Shown: piece by piece, positions 27,901-43,735 of the stretch
How positions within the stretch are numbered: position 1 is the stretch's first letter
How the letters are laid out: every line of letters starts with the position of its first letter
Origin: an uncultured Clostridia bacterium
Lineage (GTDB): Bacteria; Bacillota; Clostridia; Christensenellales; UBA1242
Length of the DNA stretch: 64,000 nucleotides
Direction of reading: 5' to 3'
Assembly (NCBI GenBank): GCA_944349925.1
Contig: CALVNT010000037.1
Coordinates: forward strand, 871-64,870
Made by a program: the position numbers and the translations under genes
The notes under the pieces: generated by a model
Told to the model about the DNA's origin: nothing
Database searches by the model: none
Seen by the model: the letters and a program-made list of their open reading frames with translations, nothing else

Positions 27901-28192
27901 ACGCGTCAATAGTTTTGATATCACTTGTAGGAATTTCATCAATTTGCTCAAACAAAAAATCCGAGCTTTTTTCTTTTAAAAATGATTTTAAAAGCCTTTC
28001 TTTAATTTCATTAGCGGCAGCTTTAGTAAATGTTAAAACTAAAAATCTTTTTAATGGTACTTTTTTCGAAATTATTAGATCGGTTATATATTTTATCAAT
28101 ATAAAGGTTTTCCCGCTACCGGCTGAGGCAGAAATTATAAGGTTTTGTTTGTTAAATTCAAGAACTTTTTGCTGTTCACTTGTCAGTCCCAT
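24908..28192 (-). CDS. addA: ATP-dependent helicase/nuclease subunit A (AddA/RexA)
   Basis: UvrD-type Walker A ASAGSGKT, FIDEYQDTN, and a C-terminal PD-(D/E)xK-like IILIDYKF. Confidence 0.85.
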   Translation of the reverse strand: MGLTSEQQKVLEFNKQNLIISASAGSGKTFILIKYITDLIISKKVPLKRFLVLTFTKAAANEIKERLLKSFLKEKSSDFLFEQIDEIPTSDIKTIDAFCEKIIKQNISKTSLDENFSIIDEKQSQNLKEKAFERAFEEFSENYTNEFGEVFFAFKKNKGMIFDCVNQIKNFFDSQEDEQYLFDYFLNNNEKLFDDSCKYLNDFLRQDFNEIFQYATQFNSQEAELISYYNQLLDLLKTPLGEDYIENAKNIASFSLPRMTSKKIDEENKQVLKNASAKLKKIINLCKQYDFSQLSLKKQRMGVLNKAILLLVDLFAKNYHSMKKNRDFIDFADAEKIAQKMLADKEILEELQESYDYVFIDEYQDTNKLQESIIKPIAEKGMFVAVGDIKQGIYGFRNASMEIMQKDIEAFSKDNESEALFLKSNFRSDKNILDFVNTIFEKIMTKNSTGVDYFSTSMLKGEQDFAFDGDKPVKICLCRESEKEKAKFPKIYSVKQDLLSLNDANQAESSLIANQIEKFLNSNLFDVSTKSFRKVLPQDIAVLFRGRSKTMKQCYKLLLEKNIDVVTDSKNNLIDCTSIKIIISLLKLTLSTNDDIALATVLHSPFCKFNLDELANISLAEGETFEEKIESLKNQNQKVCWFYQFLEDFKFNCQFKGVVKSLKEKINKSNFFENLPSDIEEKDEELSVEALYKLIKSINADFNVPLIIESVENSSIQNNFISQSDNSVLLTTIHATKGLEYPIVILAGCGDNFEKTDTNSFAISKRFGLGTNVYDNIMLTKSPTPILHAIRKENKKRHWIDEIMIFYVALTRAKNHLVLCGTFKEIETKKNLEDCNSYFDLVFTALGEKIAYELQTEGEYQDKNFDIEIFANDKKESLSTKKVLKEEVIDLEDIKEKIALKYNFNNFELKNSVTSINENAKSFAYGETNGADRTESIERGNLLHLAMKLLDFDKICDKESLCAEIENHKDELVEISEEDKNLLLSNISKVKTLCRGGKIFKEKEFVMQISLKDIDEKYQDVNIIVQGAIDLFAVLDKEIILIDYKFTNTRSEEQMRQRYKKQIELYSKALSKAYPSKKINKYLLSLKFSKVINF

Positions 28193-31172
28193 TATTCACC
28201 TCCTTAAAGTCTCTAAATGTTTTCAGTCTAATCCCGCTGTCTTTTCGATACATGCAAATTCCACCAAATACGCAGTGCTCACAAGCGTCGGCGTCGGGCA
28301 TCGGCTTTACAAAACCTTCCAAAATTTCTTTGCAAGCCCCTTTTGCCACTTCCCAAGCGTAATTTTGATAAAAACTAAGTGGCATTTTTGAAATAGCGTT
28401 GCCTGTATATGAGCCTGATTTTGAAAGAGCAATTGATAAAATTTCGCTTTTAGCCCCTTCGGTTAAATATTTATCAAAAAGTTTTAAATTTTCATCATCT
28501 TTTTCAACAAGACCTTTTAATAAACTTTTCCCGCCTTCACTATCTTCATAATCAAACTTGCAATCAAAATAAAAAACACTACCACAATGCTTGTTTAATT
28601 TTTCTTGCATAACTTTTGCATATAAAAATAATTGCAATTTGTTTCCATAATAAAGATCTTTCAACAATGATTTAGGCTTGCCTGTTTTATAATCAATAAT
28701 TCTAAAATATTCTTCTGCCACATCAATTCTATCTATTTTCCCAATAAAATTTAAGTTTTCGGAAATATTAGCGACCACCTTTTCCTCTAAACTATATGGT
28801 CTAAAACATGACGCTTGCATTTCTCTGCAAACATTTTCTAAGATTGTTTTTAATTGTTTCTTTAAAAATTTGACTAAGCCATCTTTTTCACATAACAAAT
28901 CTAATTTCTTTTGTAAACCTTGGCTTTCTATAATTTTATCAAAATTTAAATTGATAAAACTATCAACAATGCCATAATCAAAAGAAAACTCTTTGTTAAT
29001 ATATTGATTTACAAAAAGCTCAACTGCTTTATGGCAAATATTTCCAACATCTCTTTGGTCGAAGGCAAAAATTTCTTTTTCTTTTAAATTTAAGCCATAC
29101 CTTACAAAATGCTTAAACGGGCAAGAAAAATAAGTTTCAAGTTGAGTTACGGAGACATAATTATTTTTAAAAAACAATTTTGTTTGCAAATTTTTTTCAG
29201 TTTTTGTACTATTCAAAATCTCATACTTTTTCAAATTGGCAATACAACCGATTCGGTCTACAAGGTCACTTTCTTTAGTAAAAATTTTTGCAATTTGTTT
29301 TGTTTTTGTTTGAAATGTTTGATTTAATTGTTCAACAAAACTTGGCAAGGCATTTATTTTTCCTTCATCATTTAATAATTGAAAGCTTACAGCAACACTT
29401 TTCCAATTTTGAGTAAGCAAATTAAAAAGAGAAAAACGATTTCGCCTATTTATCATTCTGCTAGTAGGCTGGACAACTTTTTTGCAAATTGGGTTTTCTA
29501 TATCCCTATCACTTAAAATCGCGTTGTCACCAATAATTTTTGGAAGATTTTGCCCGCCTATAACAAACAAATTTTTTCCTTCTTCAAAAAAACTTTCCGT
29601 TGCATCTCCAACCATAATCCCATCAACTAAAGTTGGCACAGAAGAAATTTCTTTTGCGCTTAATATAAGTTCCAACTCTTTTGCTAGCTCCGCAAAATCT
29701 GCTTCATCATTCGGTGAAGAAGCATTTTGTATAAGTTGAACTGTTTTGCTGACAATATCAAAACTTTGTGCTTCAATATTTTCTTCTTTATATAGTTGTT
29801 TTTCGTGTAAGAAAATTAAATATTTTTGATAATTTGGATATATTTCGTTTAAAAAATTTTTAACCATATCAATAAGTTGATTAAAGGTTTTAATTTCTTG
29901 AAATTTATATAAGTATTTAGAAAAATTGTCTACAGAGCTAAAGAATTTGTCAAATTTCCATTTTCCATCAATCTGTTTTTGTATAATTTGTTCGATTATA
30001 TTTTTATTGTCCTGTGTTTGTAAAAGAGCGTTTGTGTAAAAATTTAAAAGACTTTCTTTTGAATAATTATGTATTTTTATATTTAACAAGGAAATAACCG
30101 CTCTAGCTAAAAGAGTTTGAAATGCATTTATGGAGTCGTCTAGAAAATAATTAAATTCGTATTTAGAAAAGATTTCATCAATAAGCTCTTTGTAGTCATC
30201 AAGTTGCCCAACTGCCACTGCAAAATCAGAAAACTTGTTCCCTTTTCGTATTTTTGACATTATAATTTTTGCAATATTTTCTACTTCTTGTCTTTTAGAA
30301 AAAGCGCTATAACTTTTAAAATAATCATCAACATTTACTGCGGGCGTTATTTGACAAGAATATAAATTTATAAGCACGCTCTCTTGTCCATTACTTTTTT
30401 TTAAGTTTCCTTCAAACACTTCTATTTGGTACTTATTTTCATTACATATTTTAATTATTTTTTCTTTTATATCATTTTCATATATATATTTGTTACCAAT
30501 AGTTTTTGGACTTGCAAACGAAATGTTTGTTTCTAGAGCACCATCGACAACAAATTTAATTATTTCATACATCTGTGAAGTAAAACTATCAAACTGAGCA
30601 AAATAAATTTTTGTTTTTGCCAAATAGTCTTTGGCAGAAGGATATTTTAAAAGTTGCTCAAAAAGTGATGCCGGATCAAGATTGTCACCGACTAACGAAA
30701 GATATTTTTCATATAATAGTGCAATATCGTGAAATTTATTTTTAGAAGTTGCAGATAAAAAACTCATTTTGTTAATATCTTCTGGAAAAATTCTGGAAGA
30801 TCCTAAAAGAGAGATTGCTTTAAAAATTTGATTACAAAAATTTATATTACTCTTTTTAAAATATAAAAATTCTTTTTGCTCCTCTTTTGCCGCCTTTTTC
30901 ACAAGCAACAGCCGTTCTCCAGCAGTGAGCATTTCTTGATTAACGCCGCTTTTTCTTAAGAGATCTATAGCGAAATTTGAAAAAGTAGTAACCCTTACAT
31001 TAAAAAGTATGCCTCCTGGTAAAAGCGACAACAATTTTTTTTCAGCCAAAAGCGAAAACCTGTCTGGCACAATAATCAAATGTTCTATTTCGTAATCACT
31101 ATTGTCGATGTGCGAAAACATAAAATTTGTTGCACAAGTAAGATTTTCTTCAACCCAAAGATTAACCTTCAT
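28176..31172 (-). CDS. addB: helicase/nuclease subunit B (AddB/RexB), Walker A absent
   Basis: Immediately upstream of and overlapping addA. Nuclease motif IIDYKTGK. Fe-S cysteines CPFKHF ... CEHCVFGGIC. The N-terminus reads VEENLTCAT where AddB normally has GRSGSGKT. Confidence 0.8.
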   Translation of the reverse strand: MKVNLWVEENLTCATNFMFSHIDNSDYEIEHLIIVPDRFSLLAEKKLLSLLPGGILFNVRVTTFSNFAIDLLRKSGVNQEMLTAGERLLLVKKAAKEEQKEFLYFKKSNINFCNQIFKAISLLGSSRIFPEDINKMSFLSATSKNKFHDIALLYEKYLSLVGDNLDPASLFEQLLKYPSAKDYLAKTKIYFAQFDSFTSQMYEIIKFVVDGALETNISFASPKTIGNKYIYENDIKEKIIKICNENKYQIEVFEGNLKKSNGQESVLINLYSCQITPAVNVDDYFKSYSAFSKRQEVENIAKIIMSKIRKGNKFSDFAVAVGQLDDYKELIDEIFSKYEFNYFLDDSINAFQTLLARAVISLLNIKIHNYSKESLLNFYTNALLQTQDNKNIIEQIIQKQIDGKWKFDKFFSSVDNFSKYLYKFQEIKTFNQLIDMVKNFLNEIYPNYQKYLIFLHEKQLYKEENIEAQSFDIVSKTVQLIQNASSPNDEADFAELAKELELILSAKEISSVPTLVDGIMVGDATESFFEEGKNLFVIGGQNLPKIIGDNAILSDRDIENPICKKVVQPTSRMINRRNRFSLFNLLTQNWKSVAVSFQLLNDEGKINALPSFVEQLNQTFQTKTKQIAKIFTKESDLVDRIGCIANLKKYEILNSTKTEKNLQTKLFFKNNYVSVTQLETYFSCPFKHFVRYGLNLKEKEIFAFDQRDVGNICHKAVELFVNQYINKEFSFDYGIVDSFINLNFDKIIESQGLQKKLDLLCEKDGLVKFLKKQLKTILENVCREMQASCFRPYSLEEKVVANISENLNFIGKIDRIDVAEEYFRIIDYKTGKPKSLLKDLYYGNKLQLFLYAKVMQEKLNKHCGSVFYFDCKFDYEDSEGGKSLLKGLVEKDDENLKLFDKYLTEGAKSEILSIALSKSGSYTGNAISKMPLSFYQNYAWEVAKGACKEILEGFVKPMPDADACEHCVFGGICMYRKDSGIRLKTFRDFKEVNNGTDK

Positions 31173-33571: not shown

Positions 33572-33659
33572 GGAAGGATGGCTGAGCGGTCGAAAGCGGC
33601 GGTCTTGAAAACCGTTGATGTGAAAGCATCCTGGGGTTCGAATCCCTATCCTTCCGCCA
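33572..33659 (+). tRNA. tRNA-Ser(UGA)
   Basis: GGAAGGATGGCTGAGCGGTCGAAAGCGGCGGTCTTGAAAACCGTTGATGTGAAAGCATCCTGGGGTTCGAATCCCTATCCTTCCGCCA. Long variable arm, anticodon loop CTTGAAA, encoded CCA. Confidence 0.9.
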
Positions 33660-33706
33660 TAGACTTGTCCATCCGTACCAATTCTGGTATGGGTGGAATT
33701 TTTTAT
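33652..33706 (+). repeat. direct repeat copy 1 (attL-like): last 8 nt of tRNA-Ser plus terminator hairpin
   Basis: TTCCGCCATAGACTTGTCCATCCGTACCAATTCTGGTATGGGTGGAATTTTTTAT. A 12-bp stem (33669-33680 / 33685-33696) is followed by a T-run. Confidence 0.8.
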
Positions 33707-33771: not shown

Positions 33772-34557
33772 ATGTTATATGATTATTCTAAAAATATTAT
33801 AATATGTGAAGATAGAAAGCAAGTTATTAATAGTAAAATATATTTTCAAATACAATGCATTCATGGTTATAAAGATATATATGCTAAGCGTTTTATAAAT
33901 AAAGGTGAATACGGAGGTTTTGTTCATTCAAGTATTTCGAAAATTACTAATTGGATTGAAGAAAATGACATTTTGGGTATGCCGATAACTGAAATTTGTT
34001 ATATCCAGAAAGTATCTTCTTATTGTAAATATAGAAAAAGTAATTTATTAAATCATGTAAATTTTGTTAAAGAATATGTAAATTTTTGTATGTATAATAA
34101 GAAAGGAACTTCTGAACATAGCAAAATAAATGCACATCTTTGGAATTCGCAAAGAATATTAGGGATGATAGAAGAATTAAAACAAAATGAAGAAATTATT
34201 ATTAATCAACATACTGAAATATCTGATGCAAAAAAAATAGTACTTTGGCTTCTTTTAGGAGCTATTTCTGAAGCAATTCTAAAATTACATATCATATTAA
34301 CGAGAGAGAAGTATAAAGATTTTGAAAAATCAGATTATGAAAAACTAAAAGTTAAAGATATAATAAATAAAATGTATGAACAAAAAGACATTTCAAAAGA
34401 AGATAGCATCTTTTTACATAAATTAAATGGCAATAGAAACATGATACATATATTAAATAACGAAAATATTTATAATTACGAAGAATATTGTATTGCAATA
34501 GATAATCTATTTCAAATATTAACAGATTTATATAATATACAAAAAAGTATGATTTAA
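33772..34557 (+). CDS. hypothetical protein (261 aa), first island gene
   Basis: GGAGAG SD; no family recognised. Confidence 0.5.
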   Translation: MLYDYSKNIIICEDRKQVINSKIYFQIQCIHGYKDIYAKRFINKGEYGGFVHSSISKITNWIEENDILGMPITEICYIQKVSSYCKYRKSNLLNHVNFVKEYVNFCMYNKKGTSEHSKINAHLWNSQRILGMIEELKQNEEIIINQHTEISDAKKIVLWLLLGAISEAILKLHIILTREKYKDFEKSDYEKLKVKDIINKMYEQKDISKEDSIFLHKLNGNRNMIHILNNENIYNYEEYCIAIDNLFQILTDLYNIQKSMI

Positions 34558-34609: not shown

Positions 34610-35182
34610 TCATAAATCTAATTTGTATTTAATTGTATTAAAAGCAATCTCAAAAACCTCATTTTGCGATAAAAAAGATGTGTCTATTATTAAGTGCTTA
34701 AGTCTATATTTTTTAATATATTGAATTAATTTTTTTTCGTCTGCATTTAAAATAATTTCATTTTGCAAATCAGAATCATGCGGATTTCGTTTTAAAAGCC
34801 TAGTTTTTCTTATTTCTGGAGTTGCTGTTAATAAAATTGTAAAATCAGGCTTTCCAAAATTTTTAATTGAATTTTTAAATATAAATTCACTAACTTTATT
34901 GCCATTCCAATAATAATTTAATAGAGCATGCCTGTCTAAAATTACATTTTTATTTTTATAATATTCAAGAGCATAATTATCGCCTATTGACAAAAACATC
35001 GCAGTTAATAAACTGTTATTATAATTAATTACTTTTTCAGAAATTTTTCTATAATCATTTTCAGAAATGTCATATAACTTGCACTCAGGGTGTTTAACAT
35101 ATTCATATTTCAATTTTTTTGATAATTGTAGGGCAAGCGACGTTTTGCCAACTCCATCATGTCCTTCAATTGCTATAATCAT
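34610..35182 (-). CDS. thymidylate-kinase-family P-loop nucleotide kinase
   Basis: MIIAIEGHDGVGKTSLA (P-loop), LDRHALLNYYW (DR[YH] motif region) and PDFTILLTATPEIRKTRLLKR (lid/PD..L region). Confidence 0.7.
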   Translation of the reverse strand: MIIAIEGHDGVGKTSLALQLSKKLKYEYVKHPECKLYDISENDYRKISEKVINYNNSLLTAMFLSIGDNYALEYYKNKNVILDRHALLNYYWNGNKVSEFIFKNSIKNFGKPDFTILLTATPEIRKTRLLKRNPHDSDLQNEIILNADEKKLIQYIKKYRLKHLIIDTSFLSQNEVFEIAFNTIKYKLDL

Positions 35183-35778
35183 TGTCCTTCTCTCCTTAAT
35201 AAAAATTTAGTTAATTTTTTATACAAATTGTCCTCATATAACAAAGTTTTGCAACCAGCTGTTTGTGGGTTTTTTATATCCATTTCCCAATTGTCACCAA
35301 TATGTAATATTTCTTGTGGGTCCATTTTAAACATAGTAGCTAATTTTTTAAATGCTATTGCCGGTTTACCTGCAATATGGAAATCTTCCAATGTTGATAT
35401 ACAAGTTTTAAATAATGCTTGATACTCTCCAAGTTCAAAATCTATAAATGTATGAGTAGTAGTAGAAAATATTACGCAAGGAATTTTACTTTTACTTATA
35501 AAGTCTAATATTTTTAAATCAAGTTTGGGTTTATCTATTTTTTCAAGCTCATATTTAGTATTAAAATTTAAAAGATTTTCCCAATATTTTTCATCATAAT
35601 ATTTAAAATCATACTTTCCTACTTCGTTAAAAAAAATTTTTAGATTGTCCTTTGCTTCTTGTATGCCAATATTATAATGCTTTGCGTATTTTTCAGGTAA
35701 AATTTTTAACCAGAATGTGTCAGAAAAATTGGAATTTGAAATAGTTCCTTGCAAATCAAAGCTTATTAATTTTATCAT
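35179..35778 (-). CDS. HAD-superfamily hydrolase (phosphatase-like)
   Basis: Motif I FDLQGT (Gln at Asp+2) and motif IV HIGDNWEMDI. Confidence 0.65.
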   Translation of the reverse strand: MIKLISFDLQGTISNSNFSDTFWLKILPEKYAKHYNIGIQEAKDNLKIFFNEVGKYDFKYYDEKYWENLLNFNTKYELEKIDKPKLDLKILDFISKSKIPCVIFSTTTHTFIDFELGEYQALFKTCISTLEDFHIAGKPAIAFKKLATMFKMDPQEILHIGDNWEMDIKNPQTAGCKTLLYEDNLYKKLTKFLLRREGQ

Positions 35779-36299
35779 CTTTTCTCCTTAACTTTTACAA
35801 GTGAGAAAATATCATATTCTTTTAAATCTTTTCTTCCATTTAAATATTCTAGCTCTGTTATATACACTAAAGCATTTACTTTTGCTTTTTGTTTTTTAAC
35901 TAGGTTAATTGCCGCCAAGCTAGCACCACTTCCAGCCATAATATCATAAATTATAGCACAATTATCATTCTCAATTAATGCGTCTACTTTTAATTGATAT
36001 TCAGCTTTACCGTATTCTTTGATAAATTTTTCGCTATAATAATCACCAGGAATTAAATTTGGCTTTCTTATAAGAACTAAAGGCAAGTTCAATAAATGGG
36101 CGATGATTGAACCAATAGTAAATCCTTTAGATTCTATAGCCACAATTTTTGTTATTTTTTTGTCTTTTAAAAACTCTAAAATTTTATTTATTGCCATATT
36201 TCTTGCACTTACATTTTTAAGTAGATAAGTAAAATCCCAATATTTAACACCCTCTTTAGGGAAATTGTCGTAACCTTTTACAAATTTTTCAAACTCCAT
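35775..36299 (-). CDS. adenine-phosphoribosyltransferase-like protein with altered PRPP loop
   Basis: Collinear with Apt: YDNFPKEGVKYWDFTYLL, ITKIVAIESKGFTIG, VLIRKPNLIP, EYGKAEYQLKVDAL. The PRPP loop IIYDIMAGSGAS replaces VVDDLLATGGT. Confidence 0.7.
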   Translation of the reverse strand: MEFEKFVKGYDNFPKEGVKYWDFTYLLKNVSARNMAINKILEFLKDKKITKIVAIESKGFTIGSIIAHLLNLPLVLIRKPNLIPGDYYSEKFIKEYGKAEYQLKVDALIENDNCAIIYDIMAGSGASLAAINLVKKQKAKVNALVYITELEYLNGRKDLKEYDIFSLVKVKEKR

Positions 36300-36304
36300 A
36301 AATA

Positions 36305-36919
36305 TTATTCCTCCATAAGTATTGCTCTTGATGGACCAGCATCAATGCCAGTTACTTTAATTGGTAAGCAAATAAGTTTATATTCTTTTTCAACCGTGTC
36401 TTTTAGCCTCAGATTATCTAAACAAATAATGTTTTTTTCCATAAAAATTCTATGTATTTTACATTCTCCATTTCTTTCAAAACTTTGATAATCATAACCT
36501 ACAAGAATTACACCCAAATCCCTTAGATATTCTGCTGCATCTTCTGTCAATGCAACATGTTCAGGATTGTATTTTTCCATTTTATCATATGAATTTTTAG
36601 TTTTTAAAAGTATTCTTTTTAAGTAAATATCTTTTTTCTGTAAGTCTTTTTTAGTTATCATATCATCTGCTTCTGTTAAATCTAACACTTGACAATCACC
36701 AATCAATACTTCAAATGGTACTTCATCACTTTTCCATTTATCATTAAACAAATAATACGGAGCATCTATGTGCGTTCCGGCGTGAGCACCAAAATCAAGC
36801 CACGTAAAGTTAACTGGTGCATCCGGTATTCGAGCTAATCGAATTAGCTTTGGTGGCTCATCATCTTTCCAGACAATAGTGCGTTCATTAAGCTCCATTG
36901 ATATATCAATAATATTCAT
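36305..36919 (-). CDS. cyclase-family protein (kynurenine-formamidase-like metal hydrolase)
   Basis: FGAHAGTHIDAPYY signature of the putative cyclase / KynB family. Confidence 0.7.
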   Translation of the reverse strand: MNIIDISMELNERTIVWKDDEPPKLIRLARIPDAPVNFTWLDFGAHAGTHIDAPYYLFNDKWKSDEVPFEVLIGDCQVLDLTEADDMITKKDLQKKDIYLKRILLKTKNSYDKMEKYNPEHVALTEDAAEYLRDLGVILVGYDYQSFERNGECKIHRIFMEKNIICLDNLRLKDTVEKEYKLICLPIKVTGIDAGPSRAILMEE

Positions 36920-38159
36920 AGATCTCTCCTAACTTTTTATTTATTCTTTTTAGCCAATTGATTCTATATGTACTAAATTTTTTTAGTATTTGATTTAAAA
37001 TGAATAATCTATATTTTTTATATTTTCTTAATATACTTTCTGAATATTTTATATTGCATTTTAATTTTTCAAAAGCATTCCAATAGTCAAGGTGGTTTTT
37101 TACTGGCATAGGTGACCATGCTGGCGCATAAATTTCAAAAACTTGATCAAGAAAATCATAATATTTGGAAATGCCATATAACTTAAACTCTAAATCTTTT
37201 ATAATATATCTGGCAATATCTTCAATTCTAATATAGTTTCTTACTTGTTCTTCTACGCAGTTAGATTTTAATTTTGATAATAAATCATTTTTTAAAATAT
37301 AATCTTTTATTGTTTTATAAAACGCCTTACAATTTTTGCCTTCATTTAACACATTTAACAAATCATCTAAATAAATTTTTTCAAATGTATCGGCAGAATA
37401 AAAATAATAACCTATTAAATCAATTCTGTTTTCAAATGGATAAGCCCCATTGGTATAGCACTCTAACTCTGTCTCTTTGCTATAAAGCGTGAATGCAATT
37501 TTATCAACTAAATTTGGTTTTTCTAAAAACATACAGAATGCGGAAAGTTTAAAATCTGGCTTAATATTAAATAATTTAGCAAATAAATTAAAGTTCCTAA
37601 TGATAGTTCCTGCGTTTATATATTCGTCAAAAACCAAAAATTTAGAATTAAAAAATTTAGATAATTTTGTACCATATAAAACTTTATTAAATTGTTTCAA
37701 TATATTATAATTATAATCAAAATTATCATTTATGCTATCTATAATTGTAAATGGTTTTTTCTGTATTAAATTATCCAAATTTGTTTTGTCGCATAAATTT
37801 TTTAAATAATTGCAACGGGGAAGTAAATGATTATTAATTAGTACGTTTTGATTTAATTCAGTTTTGCTAAGATACAATTTAAACCAATCAAACAAATTAA
37901 AGTTCAAATCTCTTGGAATTTTGAGCTGTATAAAGTTTATATCTGAAACTTTATATTCAGGTAAGAGTGTGATAATTTTAAATAAAGGTGCTGTTCCACT
38001 TTCAATAAAAATTACATTTTTGTAATTTGACTTAATAATTTCATCAAAAACCATTTGAGCCATTTTTATTGACTGTTTGTCGTCTTTGTATTTAAATCCA
38101 CGACCAAAATCCTCATTAATAAATTTTGATAAATTATCAATTTTTCCATATGGATTCAT
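36906..38159 (-). CDS. orphan 417-aa protein with a possible PRTase-like PRPP motif
   Basis: FLVFDEYINAGTIIRNF resembles the hhhhD[DE]xxxxGxT PRPP loop; otherwise unrecognised. Confidence 0.35.
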   Translation of the reverse strand: MNPYGKIDNLSKFINEDFGRGFKYKDDKQSIKMAQMVFDEIIKSNYKNVIFIESGTAPLFKIITLLPEYKVSDINFIQLKIPRDLNFNLFDWFKLYLSKTELNQNVLINNHLLPRCNYLKNLCDKTNLDNLIQKKPFTIIDSINDNFDYNYNILKQFNKVLYGTKLSKFFNSKFLVFDEYINAGTIIRNFNLFAKLFNIKPDFKLSAFCMFLEKPNLVDKIAFTLYSKETELECYTNGAYPFENRIDLIGYYFYSADTFEKIYLDDLLNVLNEGKNCKAFYKTIKDYILKNDLLSKLKSNCVEEQVRNYIRIEDIARYIIKDLEFKLYGISKYYDFLDQVFEIYAPAWSPMPVKNHLDYWNAFEKLKCNIKYSESILRKYKKYRLFILNQILKKFSTYRINWLKRINKKLGEIYEYY

Positions 38160-38161
38160 AT

Positions 38162-38818
38162 TTACTCCTTTGCAATTTCAATGAAATTTTTAATTTTTTC
38201 AAAATCTTTTCTATCTTTTTTTAGATAAGTATCGCTGAAGGTGCTAACACCAGTAGATACATCAACACCATATGGCTCGGTTGTTTTAATTGCACCTTGT
38301 AAATTTTGTAGATTTAAACCGCCAGCAATAAAAGAAGGTTTGTTTGTTGATTTCAATAAAATTGATGTTCGTATCCAATCATTTTCTTTGCCCGTTCCAC
38401 CAGTATAATCAAGATTTCTAGAATCAAATAAAAAGTAATCACAATAAGGGTAATAAAGCTTCATTCTGCTTTCTGCATCATTATAATTAGAAACAATTGT
38501 TTTGATAATTTCCCCTAAGAAATTTTCTCTAACAATTTTTATCTGCTTTTCATCAATATCTTCTGATATTTGAATACCTGTACACTTTATATATTTAGCT
38601 AAATCCAAAATGTCCTCAGCATTTAATAAGTGCGTAACTAAAAAGCTTTTAACATTTTTAGGAAATTTTTTTATAGTTTCACGAACCCATTGAGCGTATG
38701 GTTCGACCTCAACAGGCAAAACTTTTCCACCCATAACAAATCCTATACAATCTGCTCCGAGTTTTATCGCATTTAAAGCATCAATTTCGTTACTTATTCC
38801 ACATATTTTAACTTTCAT
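38162..38818 (-). CDS. phosphoribosylanthranilate-isomerase (TrpF/PRAI)-like TIM-barrel protein
   Basis: MKVKICGIS..AIKLGADCIGFV, TGGTGKENDW, FIAGGLNLQNL and YGVDVSTGVS are collinear with TrpF. No other trp genes are nearby. Confidence 0.7.
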   Translation of the reverse strand: MKVKICGISNEIDALNAIKLGADCIGFVMGGKVLPVEVEPYAQWVRETIKKFPKNVKSFLVTHLLNAEDILDLAKYIKCTGIQISEDIDEKQIKIVRENFLGEIIKTIVSNYNDAESRMKLYYPYCDYFLFDSRNLDYTGGTGKENDWIRTSILLKSTNKPSFIAGGLNLQNLQGAIKTTEPYGVDVSTGVSTFSDTYLKKDRKDFEKIKNFIEIAKE

Positions 38819-39656
38819 TTTCTTTTACCTCATAATTATAAACTTCTTTTAAATATTCACCCCACAAACCATCATCATTTCCGCTTTTAGTTTTTAACTT
38901 AGATAAATTGTCAATTGAACCGCGATCGATAACACCATTTTCAGTTACTTCACATAAATTACCATTACCATCAACAAATACATCATAATCGTTTTCAATT
39001 TCAAAATCTTCTTCAACAATAATGCTGTTTTTATAATTTTCTTTGACTTTTTTCATTAAAATTTCATAGGCATCTTTATCTACTTCAAATCTTTTACGAT
39101 AATCTTTTCCATATCCACTGGCGAAAAATTTTCCTAATTTCCAACTTAAAATTTTACTATTCATTAGAGTAAACATATTAGGGATATCATTAATATTCTC
39201 TTTGCCAACCATAGTATTTATTTTAATTTTTACTTTTGGATATTTGCTTGATATATAGTCAACTAGTTTTAAAACATGTTCATGATGATTTTCAAGCGCA
39301 CAGGGACGCATTTTATTATGTATCATAGGGTCAAATGAATCTAATGGCAGATTAATTGCATCTATATAATTTAAAACATCTTCTTTTTGTGGAAGTAGTA
39401 TGCCATTGGTTGAAATTATTGTCATCAATCCCTTGTCTTTGCAATACTTAATTATTTCTATAATATCATCCCTTACAAGTGGATCTCCGCCTGTAAGATT
39501 TATAGCTTTTAAGCCATTGTCAATTAAAACATCTATAACATGTTTTGCCTTTTGTGTACTTATTTGTTCACGATTAATTCTCCAATCAGAAAAGCAAAAT
39601 TCGCAATTCATATTACATCTGCTTGATATTTCAAAACAAGTGTAAACTATTTTCAT
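38808..39656 (-). CDS. radical SAM enzyme, viperin/MoaA-like (no auxiliary cluster)
   Basis: CNMNCEFC (CxxxCxxC), INLTGGDPL, IISTNG, LPLDSFD, IKINTMV, SWKLGKFF. 282 aa with no C-terminal Cys cluster. Confidence 0.65.
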   Translation of the reverse strand: MKIVYTCFEISSRCNMNCEFCFSDWRINREQISTQKAKHVIDVLIDNGLKAINLTGGDPLVRDDIIEIIKYCKDKGLMTIISTNGILLPQKEDVLNYIDAINLPLDSFDPMIHNKMRPCALENHHEHVLKLVDYISSKYPKVKIKINTMVGKENINDIPNMFTLMNSKILSWKLGKFFASGYGKDYRKRFEVDKDAYEILMKKVKENYKNSIIVEEDFEIENDYDVFVDGNGNLCEVTENGVIDRGSIDNLSKLKTKSGNDDGLWGEYLKEVYNYEVKENES

Positions 39657-40753
39657 AAATCCTCCTTAAAAATATTTTCTATTTCATTTTTTACTCTTTC
39701 ATAATCTTCTTTAAAAGTTGTTAAATCCCCATTAATATCTAAATGATTAAACTCACTTCCTCTTTGGGTTGCTTCAGTCGAACCTGCCATATTTACAGCA
39801 CCTATAGATTTTACCCTTGTAATGTTATAGCCGAACTTTTCCATAGCTTTAATTTTTAATGGATTATTTGTCAACATAACAACATTTTTATTTGCTTGTA
39901 TAAAGTCCATAATAATAGGAGTTATATTATATCCAGCACCATCGTTTTCTTTTCTTGGATCTCCTTCAATGCCGATAGTAGTAAAGCCTCCATACATTGT
40001 TGTTTTATAGGTTTGTTCTGCACTATATTCACCTCTGTGACGCATTGAAGCTCGCTCACTTAAATCAAAAACAAATTCATCTTTTGTATAGCCGCTACCC
40101 ATTCCATTTTGAGAATCAATATGCATCAAAACAAATCCAATTTTACTGATTTTACTATAAATATGTTTGCCTTCGCTATATTTAAATTGTTCTTGCACCC
40201 AATGTTCAAAAGCATCTCCATTATCAAATTTAGGTGGCGTGATTTCATTAAAAGTCGCTGATAGTTCTCTGATATTTTTCCATTGATAATAACAATTGCA
40301 TCTTTGAGAACCAAACAAGAATGATGGCGTACAAGCAGATTCTGTTCTTAAAACAATTTTATTATCGTAAATATTGCCTACAATTCCAACGTTTGCATAT
40401 TCCATGCCAATCATGGGATTATAAATACACAAACCAATGTGTCTTACTAGATGTGGTGTTTCATTTTTCTCTGATAAAGAAAATAAAGTTGCACCTTTAT
40501 TGGCAATAATTAAGGACTTTGTTTTTTTATGAATTGCAATATCATATAAATTCATTAAATCACCAGTGGCTTTGTTTTGATCTAGCCCTGTTATAAAATT
40601 TAAAATTATCTTATTAAACATATTTCTATCTTTGATATTCCAAACAGGTGAATTGTCATTTGGAACTTTATCTAATACTTCGATATAAATTTGTCTTATT
40701 CTTTTTATCCTAGATAAATAGTTATTTATTCCGTTTTCAATTTTATCTTTCAT
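39653..40753 (-). CDS. GTP cyclohydrolase II-family protein, divergent, with ~130-aa N-terminal extension
   Basis: RTESACTPSFLFGSQRCNCYYQ (three Zn-ligand Cys as in RibA C..RCDC) and VVMLTNNPLKIKAMEKFGYNITRV (RibA LLTNNPRK..L...G). Confidence 0.65.
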   Translation of the reverse strand: MKDKIENGINNYLSRIKRIRQIYIEVLDKVPNDNSPVWNIKDRNMFNKIILNFITGLDQNKATGDLMNLYDIAIHKKTKSLIIANKGATLFSLSEKNETPHLVRHIGLCIYNPMIGMEYANVGIVGNIYDNKIVLRTESACTPSFLFGSQRCNCYYQWKNIRELSATFNEITPPKFDNGDAFEHWVQEQFKYSEGKHIYSKISKIGFVLMHIDSQNGMGSGYTKDEFVFDLSERASMRHRGEYSAEQTYKTTMYGGFTTIGIEGDPRKENDGAGYNITPIIMDFIQANKNVVMLTNNPLKIKAMEKFGYNITRVKSIGAVNMAGSTEATQRGSEFNHLDINGDLTTFKEDYERVKNEIENIFKEDL

Positions 40754-41300
40754 TTTTTTCTCCTAAATTATTTTCAAAATTTTTAAAGATTTGGTTTAAT
40801 CTTTCATATTCATCTACATGCGGGAATATATTGCTACTTCTATCGTGTTTGAAAATTTCTGCCATTTCAAAATATTGGGCACATTCTACTTCTTCTTGTT
40901 GATATCTTAAATCTTCAAGATTAACATTTTTTTTCAATACAAATACATCTACAAATTCTCTGCTTACTATGTCTTTCCAAGCAAAATCTTCTTTAATTGT
41001 GAATAGAAATTTAAAGTCTTTGGGCTTCAATTTTAGCCCTAATTCTTCTTCTCCTTCTCTAATGGCACTAATAAGTGATTTTTCTCCCGCAGCAATGTGA
41101 CCAGCAAAGGAACAGTCCCAGTAGTTTGGGAAAAATTTCTTTTTAGCACATCGTTTTTGCATTAATATTTGATTTTTATCATTTACAATCCAAACATGTA
41201 CGCTTTTGTGCCAAAGCCCTTTTTTGTGAGCTATAGCTTTATCAATTACTCCTTTACAATTACCATTTTCATCATACCAATCAATTAATTCATGCTCCAT
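40743..41300 (-). CDS. NUDIX hydrolase
   Basis: Intact Nudix box GHIAAGEKSLISAIREGEEELGL. Start at MEHELIDW after AAGGAG. Confidence 0.8.
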   Translation of the reverse strand: MEHELIDWYDENGNCKGVIDKAIAHKKGLWHKSVHVWIVNDKNQILMQKRCAKKKFFPNYWDCSFAGHIAAGEKSLISAIREGEEELGLKLKPKDFKFLFTIKEDFAWKDIVSREFVDVFVLKKNVNLEDLRYQQEEVECAQYFEMAEIFKHDRSSNIFPHVDEYERLNQIFKNFENNLGEKNER

Positions 41301-41899
41301 TCTTTTTCTCCTTTTTCTTGTGATATTTCTGGTAGTGGCAGAAAGCCACAACATATAACTGGGGTGTTTTCTGCATTAAAATTTAAATTATCATCATTTA
41401 TCTTGCCTTCCCTTAAAACAGACAGACATCCAGTAATTTTAAAACCTGCTTGATTTGAGAAGTTTTTCATAAATTTAAATGTTGATCCAGTTGAATATAC
41501 GTCATCTACAAATAAAACATTTTTATTTTTCAACTTTTCATATTCTGTTTGCGAAACATAGTACTCGCTTTTGCCAGATGTAATACTTTCGCCATCAATA
41601 GATATTGGATTTAACATATAGCACTTTTTACTTTTTCTTAGACATACATAGTCACAATTAAGATATCTCGCAACTTCTTGTGCGATTGGCAATCCTTTCA
41701 ATTCGGTGGTTAAAATTATGTCGTATTTAATACCTTTCGTTATAGTTTGATAAGATAGAGATTTGCCCGCTTTTTTTAATAATTCCATGTCGCCCACCAA
41801 ATTAAAACCAGCAATATATATGCCACTTGGGGTTTTCAAAATAGGCAATTGTCTTTTTAGTCCTAAAATATTTAGCTCATAAAAATTATTTTTTTTCAT
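41285..41899 (-). CDS. type I phosphoribosyltransferase
   Basis: PRPP loop VLFVDDVYSTGSTF. Start at MKKNNFYEL after GGAGGG. First gene of the operon. Confidence 0.75.
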   Translation of the reverse strand: MKKNNFYELNILGLKRQLPILKTPSGIYIAGFNLVGDMELLKKAGKSLSYQTITKGIKYDIILTTELKGLPIAQEVARYLNCDYVCLRKSKKCYMLNPISIDGESITSGKSEYYVSQTEYEKLKNKNVLFVDDVYSTGSTFKFMKNFSNQAGFKITGCLSVLREGKINDDNLNFNAENTPVICCGFLPLPEISQEKGEKEWSMN

Positions 41900-41949
41900 A
41901 TTTACCCTCCTAAAATATACTGTCTTTATTGACTTCGGCATTGTATTTT

Positions 41950-41998
41950 TTTATACGGTGTCAATATGACACTATCAATATATCATAGCATTAGTGTC
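41950..41998. promoter_or_regulatory. operon promoter (minus strand TTGATA-17-TATAAA) with palindromic operator in the spacer
   Basis: -10 at 41950-41955 and -35 at 41973-41978. Perfect palindrome GTGTCA-ATA-TGACAC at 41958-41972. A further inverted pair is GACACTA (41969-41975) / TAGTGTC (41992-41998). Confidence 0.55.
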
Positions 41999-42120
41999 TT
42001 GTCAACAATTTTATTAAAAATTTTTTAATATTTTTTGTTAAACCAAAAAGTGTTAAATCTACACTAAAAGACTTTACTTTATTTTTTAAATGTTATATAA
42101 TCCTGAAAAGGATATAATTT

Positions 42121-42762
42121 ATGGAATTTAGTAACAAATATGAAAAACAAATGATCTCAGTTGATATTTGCATGTTTTCAATAATAGATAATAAATTAAA
42201 TGTTTTACTTGCGAAAAGAGCTGAAGATCCATATAAAAATATGTGGAGTTTAATTGGCGGTGGAGTTTATAATGACGAAACGTGTGAAAACGCTGTAAAA
42301 AGAGAATTAGCCGAAAAATTAGATATTCATGATATTTCACCTATTCTTTCGAGTGTTTTTAGTGAACCTAAAAGAGATATTAGATTTAGAAATATATCAA
42401 TATCATATTTTTGTTTAGTAAATTCTTCAATAGCACATAAAATTAACACAAAAAAAGTTTTAGAAGTAAAATGGAGTGAAGTATATAAAATTACAAAATT
42501 GGCATTTGATCATAACGATATACTAAATAAAGCAATTAACCAATTAAAGGAAAAAGCTTTTGATATTGATTTCATGAAACCTTACCTACCTAAATATTTT
42601 ACTTTATCCACACTTCAATCAATATTTGAAAGTATTCTGCAAACGAATTTAGATAAAAGAAATTTTAGAAGAAAGTTAAATTCTTTAAATTGTTTAATTG
42701 ATACAGGTGAAAAAAACGAATTAGACAAACATAAAAAATCTGTTATTTATCAATTAAAATAA
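42121..42762 (+). CDS. NrtR-like Nudix-related transcriptional regulator
   Basis: N-terminal Nudix fold with degenerate box (GGGVYNDETCENAVKRELAEKLDI). C-terminal winged-helix signature FTLSTLQSIFESILQTNLDKRNFRRKL...SVIYQL. Confidence 0.7.
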   Translation: MEFSNKYEKQMISVDICMFSIIDNKLNVLLAKRAEDPYKNMWSLIGGGVYNDETCENAVKRELAEKLDIHDISPILSSVFSEPKRDIRFRNISISYFCLVNSSIAHKINTKKVLEVKWSEVYKITKLAFDHNDILNKAINQLKEKAFDIDFMKPYLPKYFTLSTLQSIFESILQTNLDKRNFRRKLNSLNCLIDTGEKNELDKHKKSVIYQLK

Positions 42763-43682: not shown

Positions 43683-43735
43683 TTCCGCCATAGACTTGTC
43701 CACCCGTACCATTATGGTATGGGTGGATTTTTATA
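43683..43735 (+). repeat. direct repeat copy 2 (attR-like), also a functional-looking terminator hairpin
   Basis: TTCCGCCATAGACTTGTCCACCCGTACCATTATGGTATGGGTGGATTTTTAT. Differs from copy 1 by one stem transition, the loop (ATTC vs TTA) and one A. Confidence 0.8.

Follow-up and report, generated by a model that had tools for sequence, protein, structure and literature searches.

A ten-gene operon on the minus strand (34610-41941) of the window, the whole 64,000-nucleotide stretch of Clostridia DNA analyzed here, probably serves to break open the GTP purine ring and remodel it as a pterin- or pyrimidine-type riboside. The best explanation of the whole, which we hold tentatively, is that three genes flagged by a sequence-only reading, for a GTP cyclohydrolase II (GCH-II)-like enzyme (GCH2L), a PRAI(TrpF)-like isomerase and a KynB-like hydrolase, form the front end of a mobile, NrtR-controlled nucleotide-remodeling operon. 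The folds, conserved residues, gene association, mobility and failure to find the corresponding host pathways are observations made here, and the substrate, the step order and the product are inferred. The features of the locus are as follows:

42121-42762, plus strand: NrtR-family regulator (Nudix-like domain and winged helix), divergent from the operon (PF21906, 69 bits; PF00293, 54 bits)
41960-42005, minus strand: promoter-like site of the operon, TTGACA-17-TGnTATATT, followed by the palindrome GTGTCAtatTGACAC (consensus matches only)
41285-41941, minus strand: type I PRTase, PRK07322 type, the operon's first gene (NF005592, 142.5 against a cut-off of 143)
40743-41354, minus strand: Nudix hydrolase, IDI/YfcD-like (PF00293, 56 bits)
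39653-40753, minus strand: GCH-II-superfamily cyclohydrolase GCH2L, 366 aa, P0001 (PF00925, 26 bits, C-terminal part only)
38808-39656, minus strand: viperin-like radical SAM enzyme, 282 aa, P0218 (PF04055, 77 bits)
38162-38818, minus strand: PRAI(TrpF)-like Amadori isomerase, 218 aa, P0217 (PF00697, 66 bits)
36906-38159, minus strand: 417-aa rare-family protein P0002, HGPRT-like type I PRTase fold with a C-terminal helical domain (AF2 model, Foldseek)
36305-36919, minus strand: KynB/cyclase-family metal hydrolase, 204 aa, P0219, candidate formamidase (PF04199, 70 bits)
35775-36299, minus strand: Apt-like PRTase with a degenerate PRPP loop (NF002636, 140 against a cut-off of 125)
35179-35778, minus strand: HAD-IA phosphatase (PF00702, PF13419, PF13242)
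34610-35182, minus strand: Tmk/Cmk-like P-loop nucleotide kinase (PF02223, 49 bits)
33652-33705, plus strand: attL-like copy of a 54-nt direct repeat, overlapping the 3' end of tRNA-Ser (33572-33659)
43683-43735, plus strand: attR-like copy of the same 54-nt repeat, 28/29 and 22/25 identical to the attL-like copy

The sequence-only reading had placed the three flagged genes side by side in one operon. All three ORFs were recovered at these positions on the minus strand, in a tightly coupled operon with overlaps of 4-14 nt or gaps of 2-5 nt; they are not neighbors, however, since the radical SAM gene and the gene for the 417-aa HGPRT-fold protein intervene. Seven genes lie outside this trio, encoding three PRTase-fold proteins, a kinase, a HAD phosphatase, a Nudix hydrolase and the viperin-like radical SAM enzyme. 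The true start of the Nudix gene is probably Met19, at 41300, and the palindrome GTGTCAtatTGACAC is a putative operator.

The AF2 model of GCH2L (pLDDT 92) has the cyclohydrolase fold on which the earlier proposal depended: it matches the GCH-II fold in Foldseek (prob 1.0) and superposes on E. coli RibA (2bz0) with Z 14.1 (VIA), rmsd 2.4 and 171/173 residues of 2bz0_B aligned. Sequence similarity to RibA is remote: hhalign against the RibA profile gave a prob of 95.5% (E 1.5e-8), PF00925 scored 26.2 against 23.3 with only 65/165 positions covered, and GCH2L lies below the equivalog cut-offs of TIGR00505 (27 against 205.85) and NF001591 (29.9 against 148). The residues R136, C141/C152/C154, R267, K300 and F229 of GCH2L correspond to R49, C54/C65/C67, R128, K154 and Y105 of RibA. 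The three zinc cysteines and the L294-T-N-N-P-x-K300 box, correctly read as retained, are unchanged in 41 GCH2L homologs, in which R136, R267 (equivalent to the Arg nucleophile R128) and K300 are likewise invariant. As for the residues proposed to tell DARP from FAPy producers, GCH2L has Phe in place of RibA Tyr105, as does at least 90% of the family. According to Spoonamore et al. in 2006, Tyr105 of RibA reportedly controls deformylation, being needed for formate release. The Phe thus suggests a product that probably is still N-formylated (AFRPP/FAPy type), and it fits a formyl-retaining cyclohydrolase followed by a separate formamidase.

The N-terminal extension of GCH2L over E. coli RibA, first estimated at ~130 aa, is in fact about 85-90 aa long (RibA residue 37 corresponds to GCH2L residue 125, and the RibA fold alignment starts at model residue 70-80). 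It gives no Pfam match to DHBP synthase (PF00926), in line with what had been stated, and the insertion noticed after the CNC motif is present at residues 163-203. With two smaller insertions besides, GCH2L differs from RibA by an extension of ~88 aa, three insertions and the Phe at the Tyr105 position. Its best structural match is the UTP cyclohydrolase 7eev (Z 15.8 by VIA, rmsd 3.8, 248 residues aligned over model positions 14-340), on whose N-terminal part the extension superposes, so that the base specificity of GCH2L is presumptive. The UTP cyclohydrolases 7eev/7ej3 of URC pyrimidine degradation are also comparable in length (both about 370-400 aa), whereas no sequence similarity to GCH2L was detected (7eev is not among its PDB sequence matches at E<=1) and their partner genes differ.

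The PRAI-like protein misses every TrpF equivalog cut-off (best 113.7 against 215), while C6, D132, G140-G-T-G, A165-G-G-L and D186-V-S-T-G are kept in 22 cassette orthologs; by analogy with T. maritima TrpF, we take these to be the catalytic Cys (base), the catalytic Asp (acid) and the phosphate-binding loops. The KynB-like protein scores 124.9 against a cut-off of 223 with TIGR03035 and matches 8hmo (E 1e-35) and KynB 4cz1 (E 2e-22) in the PDB. Its metal ligands H46, H50, D52, H156 and D168 (the HxGTHxD motif, the distal His and the acidic ligand) are kept, and at least 90% of 19 orthologs carry Tyr56 where KynB has its catalytic His60, the last residue of HxGTHxDxPxH. The chemistry proposed for the trio is plausible given the precedent in Chlamydia (PMC4161248); the base specificity of GCH2L and a formamide substrate for the KynB-like enzyme, with its His-to-Tyr exchange, are presumed.

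In the proposed pathway, GCH2L would bind a purine NTP, most likely GTP; its conserved Arg would release pyrophosphate and its Zn site would open the imidazole ring, giving an N-(5-phosphoribosyl)amino-pyrimidinone, probably with the formyl group still in place. The KynB-fold metal hydrolase would then take off this group and the PRAI-like enzyme would carry out the Amadori rearrangement of the ribosylamine, whose product, given a free 5-amino group, would be expected to close spontaneously to 7,8-dihydroneopterin 3'-phosphate, as demonstrated with Chlamydia RibA and TrpF. The trio would in effect be a 'split GTP cyclohydrolase I'. The other genes would supply the nucleotide substrate and/or process the new heterocycle to a riboside or nucleotide; these would be the HGPRT-fold/CriT-like protein with the HAD phosphatase, the Apt-like protein, the kinase and the Nudix hydrolase, joined in some lineages by the viperin-like radical SAM enzyme or a class-III aminotransferase. 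The pathway would lead to a specialized metabolite and not riboflavin, folate, queuosine or tryptophan. The order of GTP opening, deformylation and Amadori isomerization toward a non-riboflavin fate, as first suggested, fits the folds, the residues, the partner genes and the failure to find a rib or trp pathway in the host; its shortcoming is that the seven co-conserved genes were ignored. Four to seven operon genes receive only generic roles in the pathway model.

The three-enzyme chemistry is not new in principle and covers three of the ten genes. In Chlamydia, RibA and TrpF(CtL2) bypass FolE/FolQ and yield dihydroneopterin phosphate (H2NMP) (Adams et al. 2014, PMC4161248), with the same sequence of GCH-II-type GTP opening, PRAI-type Amadori rearrangement and closure; a free ribulosylamine is therefore expected to close to a pterin. 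The Chlamydia pair is canonical and housekeeping, feeding FolB/FolK/FolP, whereas the pair described here is divergent and dedicated, is encoded in one operon alongside three PRTase-fold proteins and an enzyme of formamidase fold, and belongs to a host in which folate genes were not found. The RibA/FAPy variants and archaeal GCH-III with ArfB or bacterial BrbF resemble the operon in Zn-dependent imidazole opening, pyrophosphate loss and a separate deformylase, AFRPP formamidases being known as separate enzymes (PMC9478397). ArfB and BrbF have the creatininase fold, in contrast to the KynB (PF04199) fold of our candidate, and the GCH2L loci have no riboflavin context save a RibD_C neighbor in Methanobrevibacter.

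Partners of near GCH2L relatives are a RibD_C reductase (linked to a relative of 61-62% identity), a fused LOG domain, or PRAI. In the tree, the RibD_C-linked Methanobrevibacter enzyme falls inside a clade with the window's GCH2L (support 100/100), and the LOG-fused relative groups with a cassette enzyme (99/98). Since RibD_C, LOG and PRAI all act on N-(5-phosphoribosyl)amine or N-ribosyl-5'-phosphate compounds, these associations support a DARP/FAPy-type product. In Methanobrevibacter and Coxiellaceae contexts GCH2L occurs without the cyclase, so the formamidase may not be obligatory, and in four lineages an aminotransferase lies directly 3' of PRAI, which suggests that the Amadori ketone can persist instead of closing to a pterin. 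DPANN-type homologs carry a Nudix domain fused at the GCH2L N-terminus.

A core cassette of GCH-II-like, PRAI, HGPRT-fold, cyclase, Apt-like and HAD genes recurs in CPR bacteria, DPANN archaea, Melainabacteria and gut Clostridia. On the genome-context search that the sequence-only reading had recommended, the same gene order turned up in over 20 separate loci spread across several phyla and both domains, an association far above chance. The cassette is common to very small-genome bacteria and archaea, and an NrtR-like gene adjoins GCH2L in most loci; no paper on this pathway was found in the literature. In the window, the two direct-repeat copies at tRNA-Ser bound an island of ~10 kb that carries the operon, and a search of 40 relatives, 24 of them in the same genus and 16 in the same order, did not turn up GCH2L. 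The host genome is 0.91 Mb (89.7% complete). The lack of rib and trp genes noted for the window extends to this whole genome, in which RibH, TrpA, FolP, GCH-I and PTPS were not found, nor was any pterin-using gene; neither the host nor its genus yielded the AIRS (PurM-type) domain that marks de novo purine synthesis. The flagged genes are thus not scattered rib, trp or fol genes, and the failure to find TrpA speaks against the scattered trp pathway that had been named as a possible objection.

The radical SAM gene raises another reading, namely that the operon is an extended prokaryotic-viperin defense module. The enzyme has C14/C18/C21 (CxxxCxxC), viperins are its top PDB sequence matches, and it matches PADLOC pVip at 110 bits (E 4e-32, 234/262 positions); the kinase matches PADLOC VakA (viperin-associated kinase) at 41 bits. 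Such a module would make a 3'-deoxy-3',4'-didehydro nucleotide as an antiviral chain terminator, the cyclohydrolase and its partners building or modifying the base, NrtR turning the operon on as ADP-ribose rises in infection, and the Nudix and HAD enzymes possibly shielding the host. A fusion of GCH2L to a radical SAM enzyme in one Woesearchaeota protein and the operon's place on an island that is strain-specific and lies at a tRNA gene would suit it. We nevertheless consider it unlikely, because the CPR and Melainabacteria cassettes lack the radical SAM gene, which is therefore accessory to the core, the enzyme falls below the NCBIfam viperin cut-off (NF038283 viperin_w_prok, 105 against 180), the core proteins gave no further defense HMM match, and no defense genes are visible beside the operon.

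The structural match to UTP cyclohydrolase, which includes the N-terminal extension, raises the possibility of a URC-like route, in which the cyclohydrolase would act on UTP or another non-guanine NTP made by the operon's PRTase and kinase from a salvaged base, and the PRAI-like, KynB-like and HAD enzymes would dismantle an N-ribosyl-ureide or amide. Nucleobase catabolism or salvage of this kind would suit hosts without de novo nucleotide synthesis, in keeping with the AIRS result in the host genus. We regard this as improbable: Z 15.8 is close to the Z 14.1 obtained with RibA, which is fully covered, a near relative has a linked RibD_C reductase, the loci compared contain no urea amidolyase or other URC gene, PRPP and ATP would be spent merely to destroy a base, and the island is accessory and was not seen in the 40 relatives. 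That the genes are ordinary divergent RibA, TrpF and KynB serving riboflavin, tryptophan, folate or NAD pathways with scattered genes, as Pfam names alone would have it, is hardly credible and already contradicted by the failure to find RibH, TrpA, FolP, GCH-I or PTPS in the genome, by the missed equivalog cut-offs, and by a cassette that travels together across domains and is not found in 24 same-genus genomes.

The 417-aa protein P0002 gave no Pfam or NCBIfam match, including PF00156, and belongs to a rare family (94 matching cluster representatives in 1.84 billion). Its AF2 model (pLDDT 96) matches HGPRTs in Foldseek (prob 1.0, E 2e-3), and its PRPP loop, FDEYINAGT here against a family consensus of FDEYIDSGTT, matches Giardia GPRT in the form FDEYI(D/N)(S/A)GT(T/I). 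The top VIA matches are PRPP-dependent ribofuranosyltransferases, 8a0c (Z 8.4) and 7shg (Z 7.7), and the Atlas structural neighbors are DUF8374 and HAD-fused proteins (TM about 0.4). In Hib Bcs3 capsule synthesis, CriT and CrpP pair a PRPP-dependent ribofuranosyltransferase with a HAD phosphatase (PMC10299916); possible likenesses to CriT/CrpP and 7shg are a PRTase-derived core with helical bundles, a HAD phosphatase that removes the 5-phosphate, and a fused FkbH/HAD form, the P0002 homolog P0132. CriT, however, has two acidic residues in separate loops, whereas in P0002 they are vicinal, together with the HGPRT-like loop of N-PRTases; the match is just Z 7.7-8.4, and P0002 has no polysaccharide context.

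The Apt-like PRTase scores 142 against a cut-off of 186 with TIGR01090 and has the loop YDIMAGSGA in place of DDLLATGGT, kept in 17 orthologs. The PRK07322-type PRTase has a canonical PRPP loop, VLFVDDVYSTGST, and was not seen in the other cassette loci compared, which marks it as accessory. Clusters for 7-deazapurines (toyocamycin, tubercidin) combine GCH-I, a PRTase and a HAD or Nudix enzyme, proceeding, by a logic that the operon would share, from GTP opening through a new heterocycle and a PRTase to a phosphatase or Nudix step. The operon differs from them in having no QueD, QueE or QueC homologs and a radical SAM enzyme that is viperin-like and optional. The Nudix box G86x5E92x7R100E101xxE104E105xGL is intact, and the HAD gene is always the last or next-to-last of the cassette.

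The interval 36305-40753, in which the sequence-only reading had placed GTP cyclohydrolase II (GCH-II)-like, PRAI (TrpF)-like and KynB-like enzymes side by side, lies within a ten-gene operon running on the minus strand from 41941 to 34610, the gene junctions of which are either overlaps of 4-14 nt or gaps of 2-5 nt. All three homologues were found in this operon, but their genes are non-adjacent and form just a part of the ten-gene unit. The operon and the features around it are as follows:

Gene 1, minus strand: canonical type I phosphoribosyltransferase (PRTase)
Gene 2, minus strand: Nudix hydrolase, Nudix box intact
Gene 3, 39653-40753, minus strand: GCH-II-like protein of 366 aa (GCH2L)
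Gene 4, minus strand: radical SAM protein of 282 aa
Gene 5, 38162-38818, minus strand: PRAI-like protein
Gene 6, 36906-38159, minus strand: protein of 417 aa, without a Pfam or NCBIfam match
Gene 7, 36305-36919, minus strand: KynB/cyclase-like protein
Gene 8, minus strand: Apt-like PRTase
Gene 9, minus strand: HAD phosphatase
Gene 10, minus strand: Tmk/Cmk-like kinase
41960-42005: palindrome GTGTCAtatTGACAC, directly 3' of the operon -10 element
33652-33705 and 43683-43735: 54-nt direct repeat, bounding an island of ~10 kb
33772-34557: 261-aa ORF with no Pfam match, inside the island and convergent with the operon

The gene for an NrtR-family regulator is divergently oriented relative to the operon, and the intergenic region between them contains a promoter-like TTGACA-17-TGnTATATT element and the palindrome, a perfect 6-3-6 repeat to which the NrtR-like regulator may bind as its operator. 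The island comprises the operon, the NrtR gene and the orphan 261-aa gene; the first repeat copy overlaps the 3' end of a tRNA-Ser gene (33572-33659) and includes its terminator hairpin. GCH2L was not found in 24 genomes of the same genus and 16 genomes of the same order, and in the GCH2L tree the proteins of Clostridia, Saccharibacteria and Methanobrevibacter are intermixed. Given the island repeats, the absence in these 40 relatives and the mixed tree, the cassette (the recurring gene set around GCH2L) is accessory and horizontally transferred. An ordinary AddA/AddB-type helicase-nuclease pair (24908-31172) is located just outside the island.

GCH2L is a highly conserved protein, with a mean column identity of 58% in an alignment of 41 sequences, and its similarity to RibA at the sequence level is remote. 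Comparison of the GCH2L profile with a profile of 31 RibA domains is nevertheless significant (probability 95.5%, E 1.5e-8), and the AlphaFold model built from the 41-sequence alignment (pLDDT 92) matches, in VIA-align, the UTP cyclohydrolase 7eev (Z 15.8, 248 residues, model 14-340) and Escherichia coli RibA 2bz0 (Z 14.1, 171/173 residues, model 80-318), the next matches being unrelated folds with Z below 8. Active-site residues were mapped by profile alignment: R136 corresponds to RibA R49, C141/C152/C154 to the RibA zinc cysteines, D265-P-R267 to D126-E-R128, and K300 to K154. Since all of these residues are invariant across the family, including the zinc cysteines already recognized in the sequence-only reading, GCH2L retains the machinery for NTP binding, pyrophosphate expulsion and zinc-based activation of water. 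The N-terminal extension, previously estimated at ~130 aa, is ~88 aa beyond RibA; as had been stated, it shows no likeness to DHBP synthase in a Pfam search, and in the structural comparison it overlies the N-terminal region of UTP cyclohydrolase. Further insertions relative to RibA occupy residues 163-203, 232-244 and 269-274. A search of longer GCH2L forms for fusions found only the radical SAM fusion.

F229 of GCH2L stands where RibA has Tyr105, and at least 90% of family members have Phe there. Exchange of the corresponding Tyr was reportedly found by Spoonamore et al. (Biochemistry 2006) to make a RibA paralogue of Streptomyces halt at the N-formyl product. We treat this as a lead; the Phe residue would accord with the operon encoding a formamidase-fold enzyme as a separate protein.

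The genomic partners of GCH2L were analyzed across genomes sampled one per species, and the 32 loci found were annotated against the proteins of the window. In Methanobrevibacter, GCH2L is 61-62% identical to the enzyme of the window and is directly followed by a RibD_C pyrimidine reductase (L014:9983-11853; 1e-53); this copy is additional to the housekeeping RibD_C of a genome that also has GCH-III and RibH, and the pair may represent an ArfA/ArfB bypass or a distinct pathway. A metagenomic locus (L072:1259-5478) encodes a fusion of GCH2L with a SLOG/LOG domain; next come a pair of family-1 glycosyltransferase genes and one for a P-loop protein, a logic like that by which vicine-type pyrimidine glycosides are made. 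Cassette GCH2L has the PRAI-like enzyme for a partner. In the maximum-likelihood tree, the RibD_C-linked enzyme falls inside a clade with GCH2L of the window (support 100/100), and the LOG-fused protein groups with a cassette enzyme (99/98). An N-(5-phosphoribosyl)amine is reduced by RibD_C, isomerised by PRAI and hydrolysed by LOG. As these three independent partners all use this type of substrate, we infer that GCH2L forms a ring-opened product of the DARP (deformylated) or AFRPP (formyl-retaining) type; this is the strongest backing for the starting point of the proposed chemistry. The neighbours of stand-alone chlamydial GCH2L genes are uninformative, and no consistent rib or fol pattern was found in the chlamydial genomes that carry them. 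In a Clostridiales MAG (L015:9224-12871), the neighbours of NrtR and GCH2L are an unknown protein of 227 aa and the nucleotide pyrophosphatase Maf, and the rest of the cassette is absent.

In the PRAI-like protein, a comparison of 22 orthologues shows the catalytic residues Cys6 and Asp132 to be conserved, as are all three loops that bind phosphate; the protein scores below every TrpF equivalog cut-off, and its residues 26-46 form a conserved family-specific segment. Adams et al. demonstrated the conversion of GTP to 7,8-dihydroneopterin phosphate by RibA and a TrpF, the Amadori product of DARP closing to a pterin ring (PMC4161248). Thus, the sequence of GTP opening, deformylation and Amadori isomerisation proposed from sequence is plausible and partly known already, and a pterin would be expected as its product in place of a stable ribulosylamine. 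In Woesearchaeota, Parcubacteria, Sungbacteria and Coxiellaceae (loci L018, L023, L027 and L028), a class-III aminotransferase gene directly follows the PRAI-like gene, which suggests that the 2'-ketone is able to persist; it would do so with the 5-amino group still carrying its formyl group at this point. In the Coxiellaceae MAG, the contig is cut at GCH2L, and only this gene, PRAI and the aminotransferase gene precede uvrA.

Among the matches of the cyclase-like protein, uncharacterised metal hydrolases of Bacillus rank first (8hmo, 1e-35) and KynB second (2e-22). Its metal ligands are kept, and in at least 90% of the orthologues from cassettes a Tyr replaces the final His of the HxGTHxDxPxH motif. 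The published AFRPP formamidases, ArfB and BrbF, are creatininase-family proteins (PMC9478397), so a relationship to BrbF is ruled out and a KynB-fold AFRPP formamidase, if true, would be a new, non-homologous solution.

The 417-aa family is very small (94 cluster representatives among 1.84 billion). In its model (pLDDT 96), an HGPRT-like type I PRTase domain is joined to a helical domain at the C-terminus; the PRPP loop, with the family consensus FDEYIDSGTT, is likewise of the HGPRT kind. Over the whole chain, the model is most similar to the capsule PRPP-dependent ribofuranosyltransferases 8a0c (Z 8.4) and 7shg (Z 7.7), with which the Atlas structural neighbours agree weakly; the sole match in a PDB profile search was the PRPP loop of Giardia GPRT (E 0.3). 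In capsule synthesis, such transferases partner with a HAD phosphatase (PMC10299916). At L070:3419-7866, a 962-aa protein in which an FkbH_N/HAD domain is fused to a homologue of the 417-aa protein adjoins an IMPDH/GMP-reductase-family gene; the fusion lies downstream of a phage-type integrase. In the Apt-like protein, the PRPP loop is degenerate and conserved as YDIMAGxGA.

The pVip profiles align with the radical SAM enzyme along almost its entire length (110 bits); a MoaA role is less likely, as its best sequence matches are viperins. The kinase matches the viperin-associated kinase profile. These matches speak for a viperin-based defence module, one of the two main rival explanations. Fusions of GCH2L with radical SAM and of Nudix with GCH2L are known among homologues; in the cassettes of CPR and Melainabacteria, the radical SAM gene is absent and the Nudix gene is non-adjacent, and the first PRTase was seen solely in the window among the loci compared. 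Because these elements vary between loci, the core consists of GCH2L, PRAI, the HGPRT-fold protein, the cyclase, the Apt-like protein and HAD, usually with the kinase and the NrtR-like regulator. The second main rival is a URC-like route, favoured by UTP cyclohydrolase being the top structural match of GCH2L and countered by the linkage of a RibD_C reductase to a near relative; literature searches on URC1 and 8HMO returned nothing useful.

Overall, the initial observation stands with the corrections described, and its interpretation is supported in part: ring opening, deformylation and Amadori isomerisation together are the best available reading, although we hold it tentatively, as falling somewhat short of probable. 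A broader proposal, which we regard as less likely than not, is a self-contained, horizontally traded pathway from GTP to a new pterin- or aminopyrimidine-type ribonucleoside or nucleotide, with three folds recruited to new roles. These would be a GCH-II/URC1-like enzyme halting at the formyl stage, a KynB-fold AFRPP formamidase as the third non-homologous solution after ArfB and BrbF, and an HGPRT-derived PRPP transferase re-ribosylating the new heterocycle; ultra-small symbionts would thereby make a compound with an antimetabolite, antiviral or signalling function. No paper describing the cassette came up when the literature was searched for this combination of genes. The cassette may reveal a new AFRPP formamidase class and a new PRPP-dependent transferase and, if the reading is true, would be a second, dedicated case of the RibA and TrpF route to pterins. 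It is among the few multi-gene metabolic modules that are common to, and move between, CPR, DPANN archaea, Melainabacteria and tiny gut Firmicutes. As these hosts have very few biosynthetic genes, an investment of ten genes in GTP remodelling points to an important product.

The explanation by scattered rib, trp or fol pathways, which for trp had been named as a way to refute the proposal, is rejected: RibH, TrpA, FolP, GCH-I and PTPS were all not found in the host genome (0.91 Mb, 89.7% complete). A protein with an AIRS domain was not found there either, whereas Tgt is present. RibBA is present in two thirds of the genomes sampled from the phylum of the host. The canonical queuosine route is likewise rejected, since QueD/PTPS was not found in the genus, which has Tgt, and the island contains no QueC or QueE homologue. 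In the genus (genomes of 0.7-1.3 Mb), an AIRS-domain (PurM-type) protein was not found either; with Tgt present and QueD/PTPS not found, the genus probably relies on salvaged purines and queuine or preQ1.
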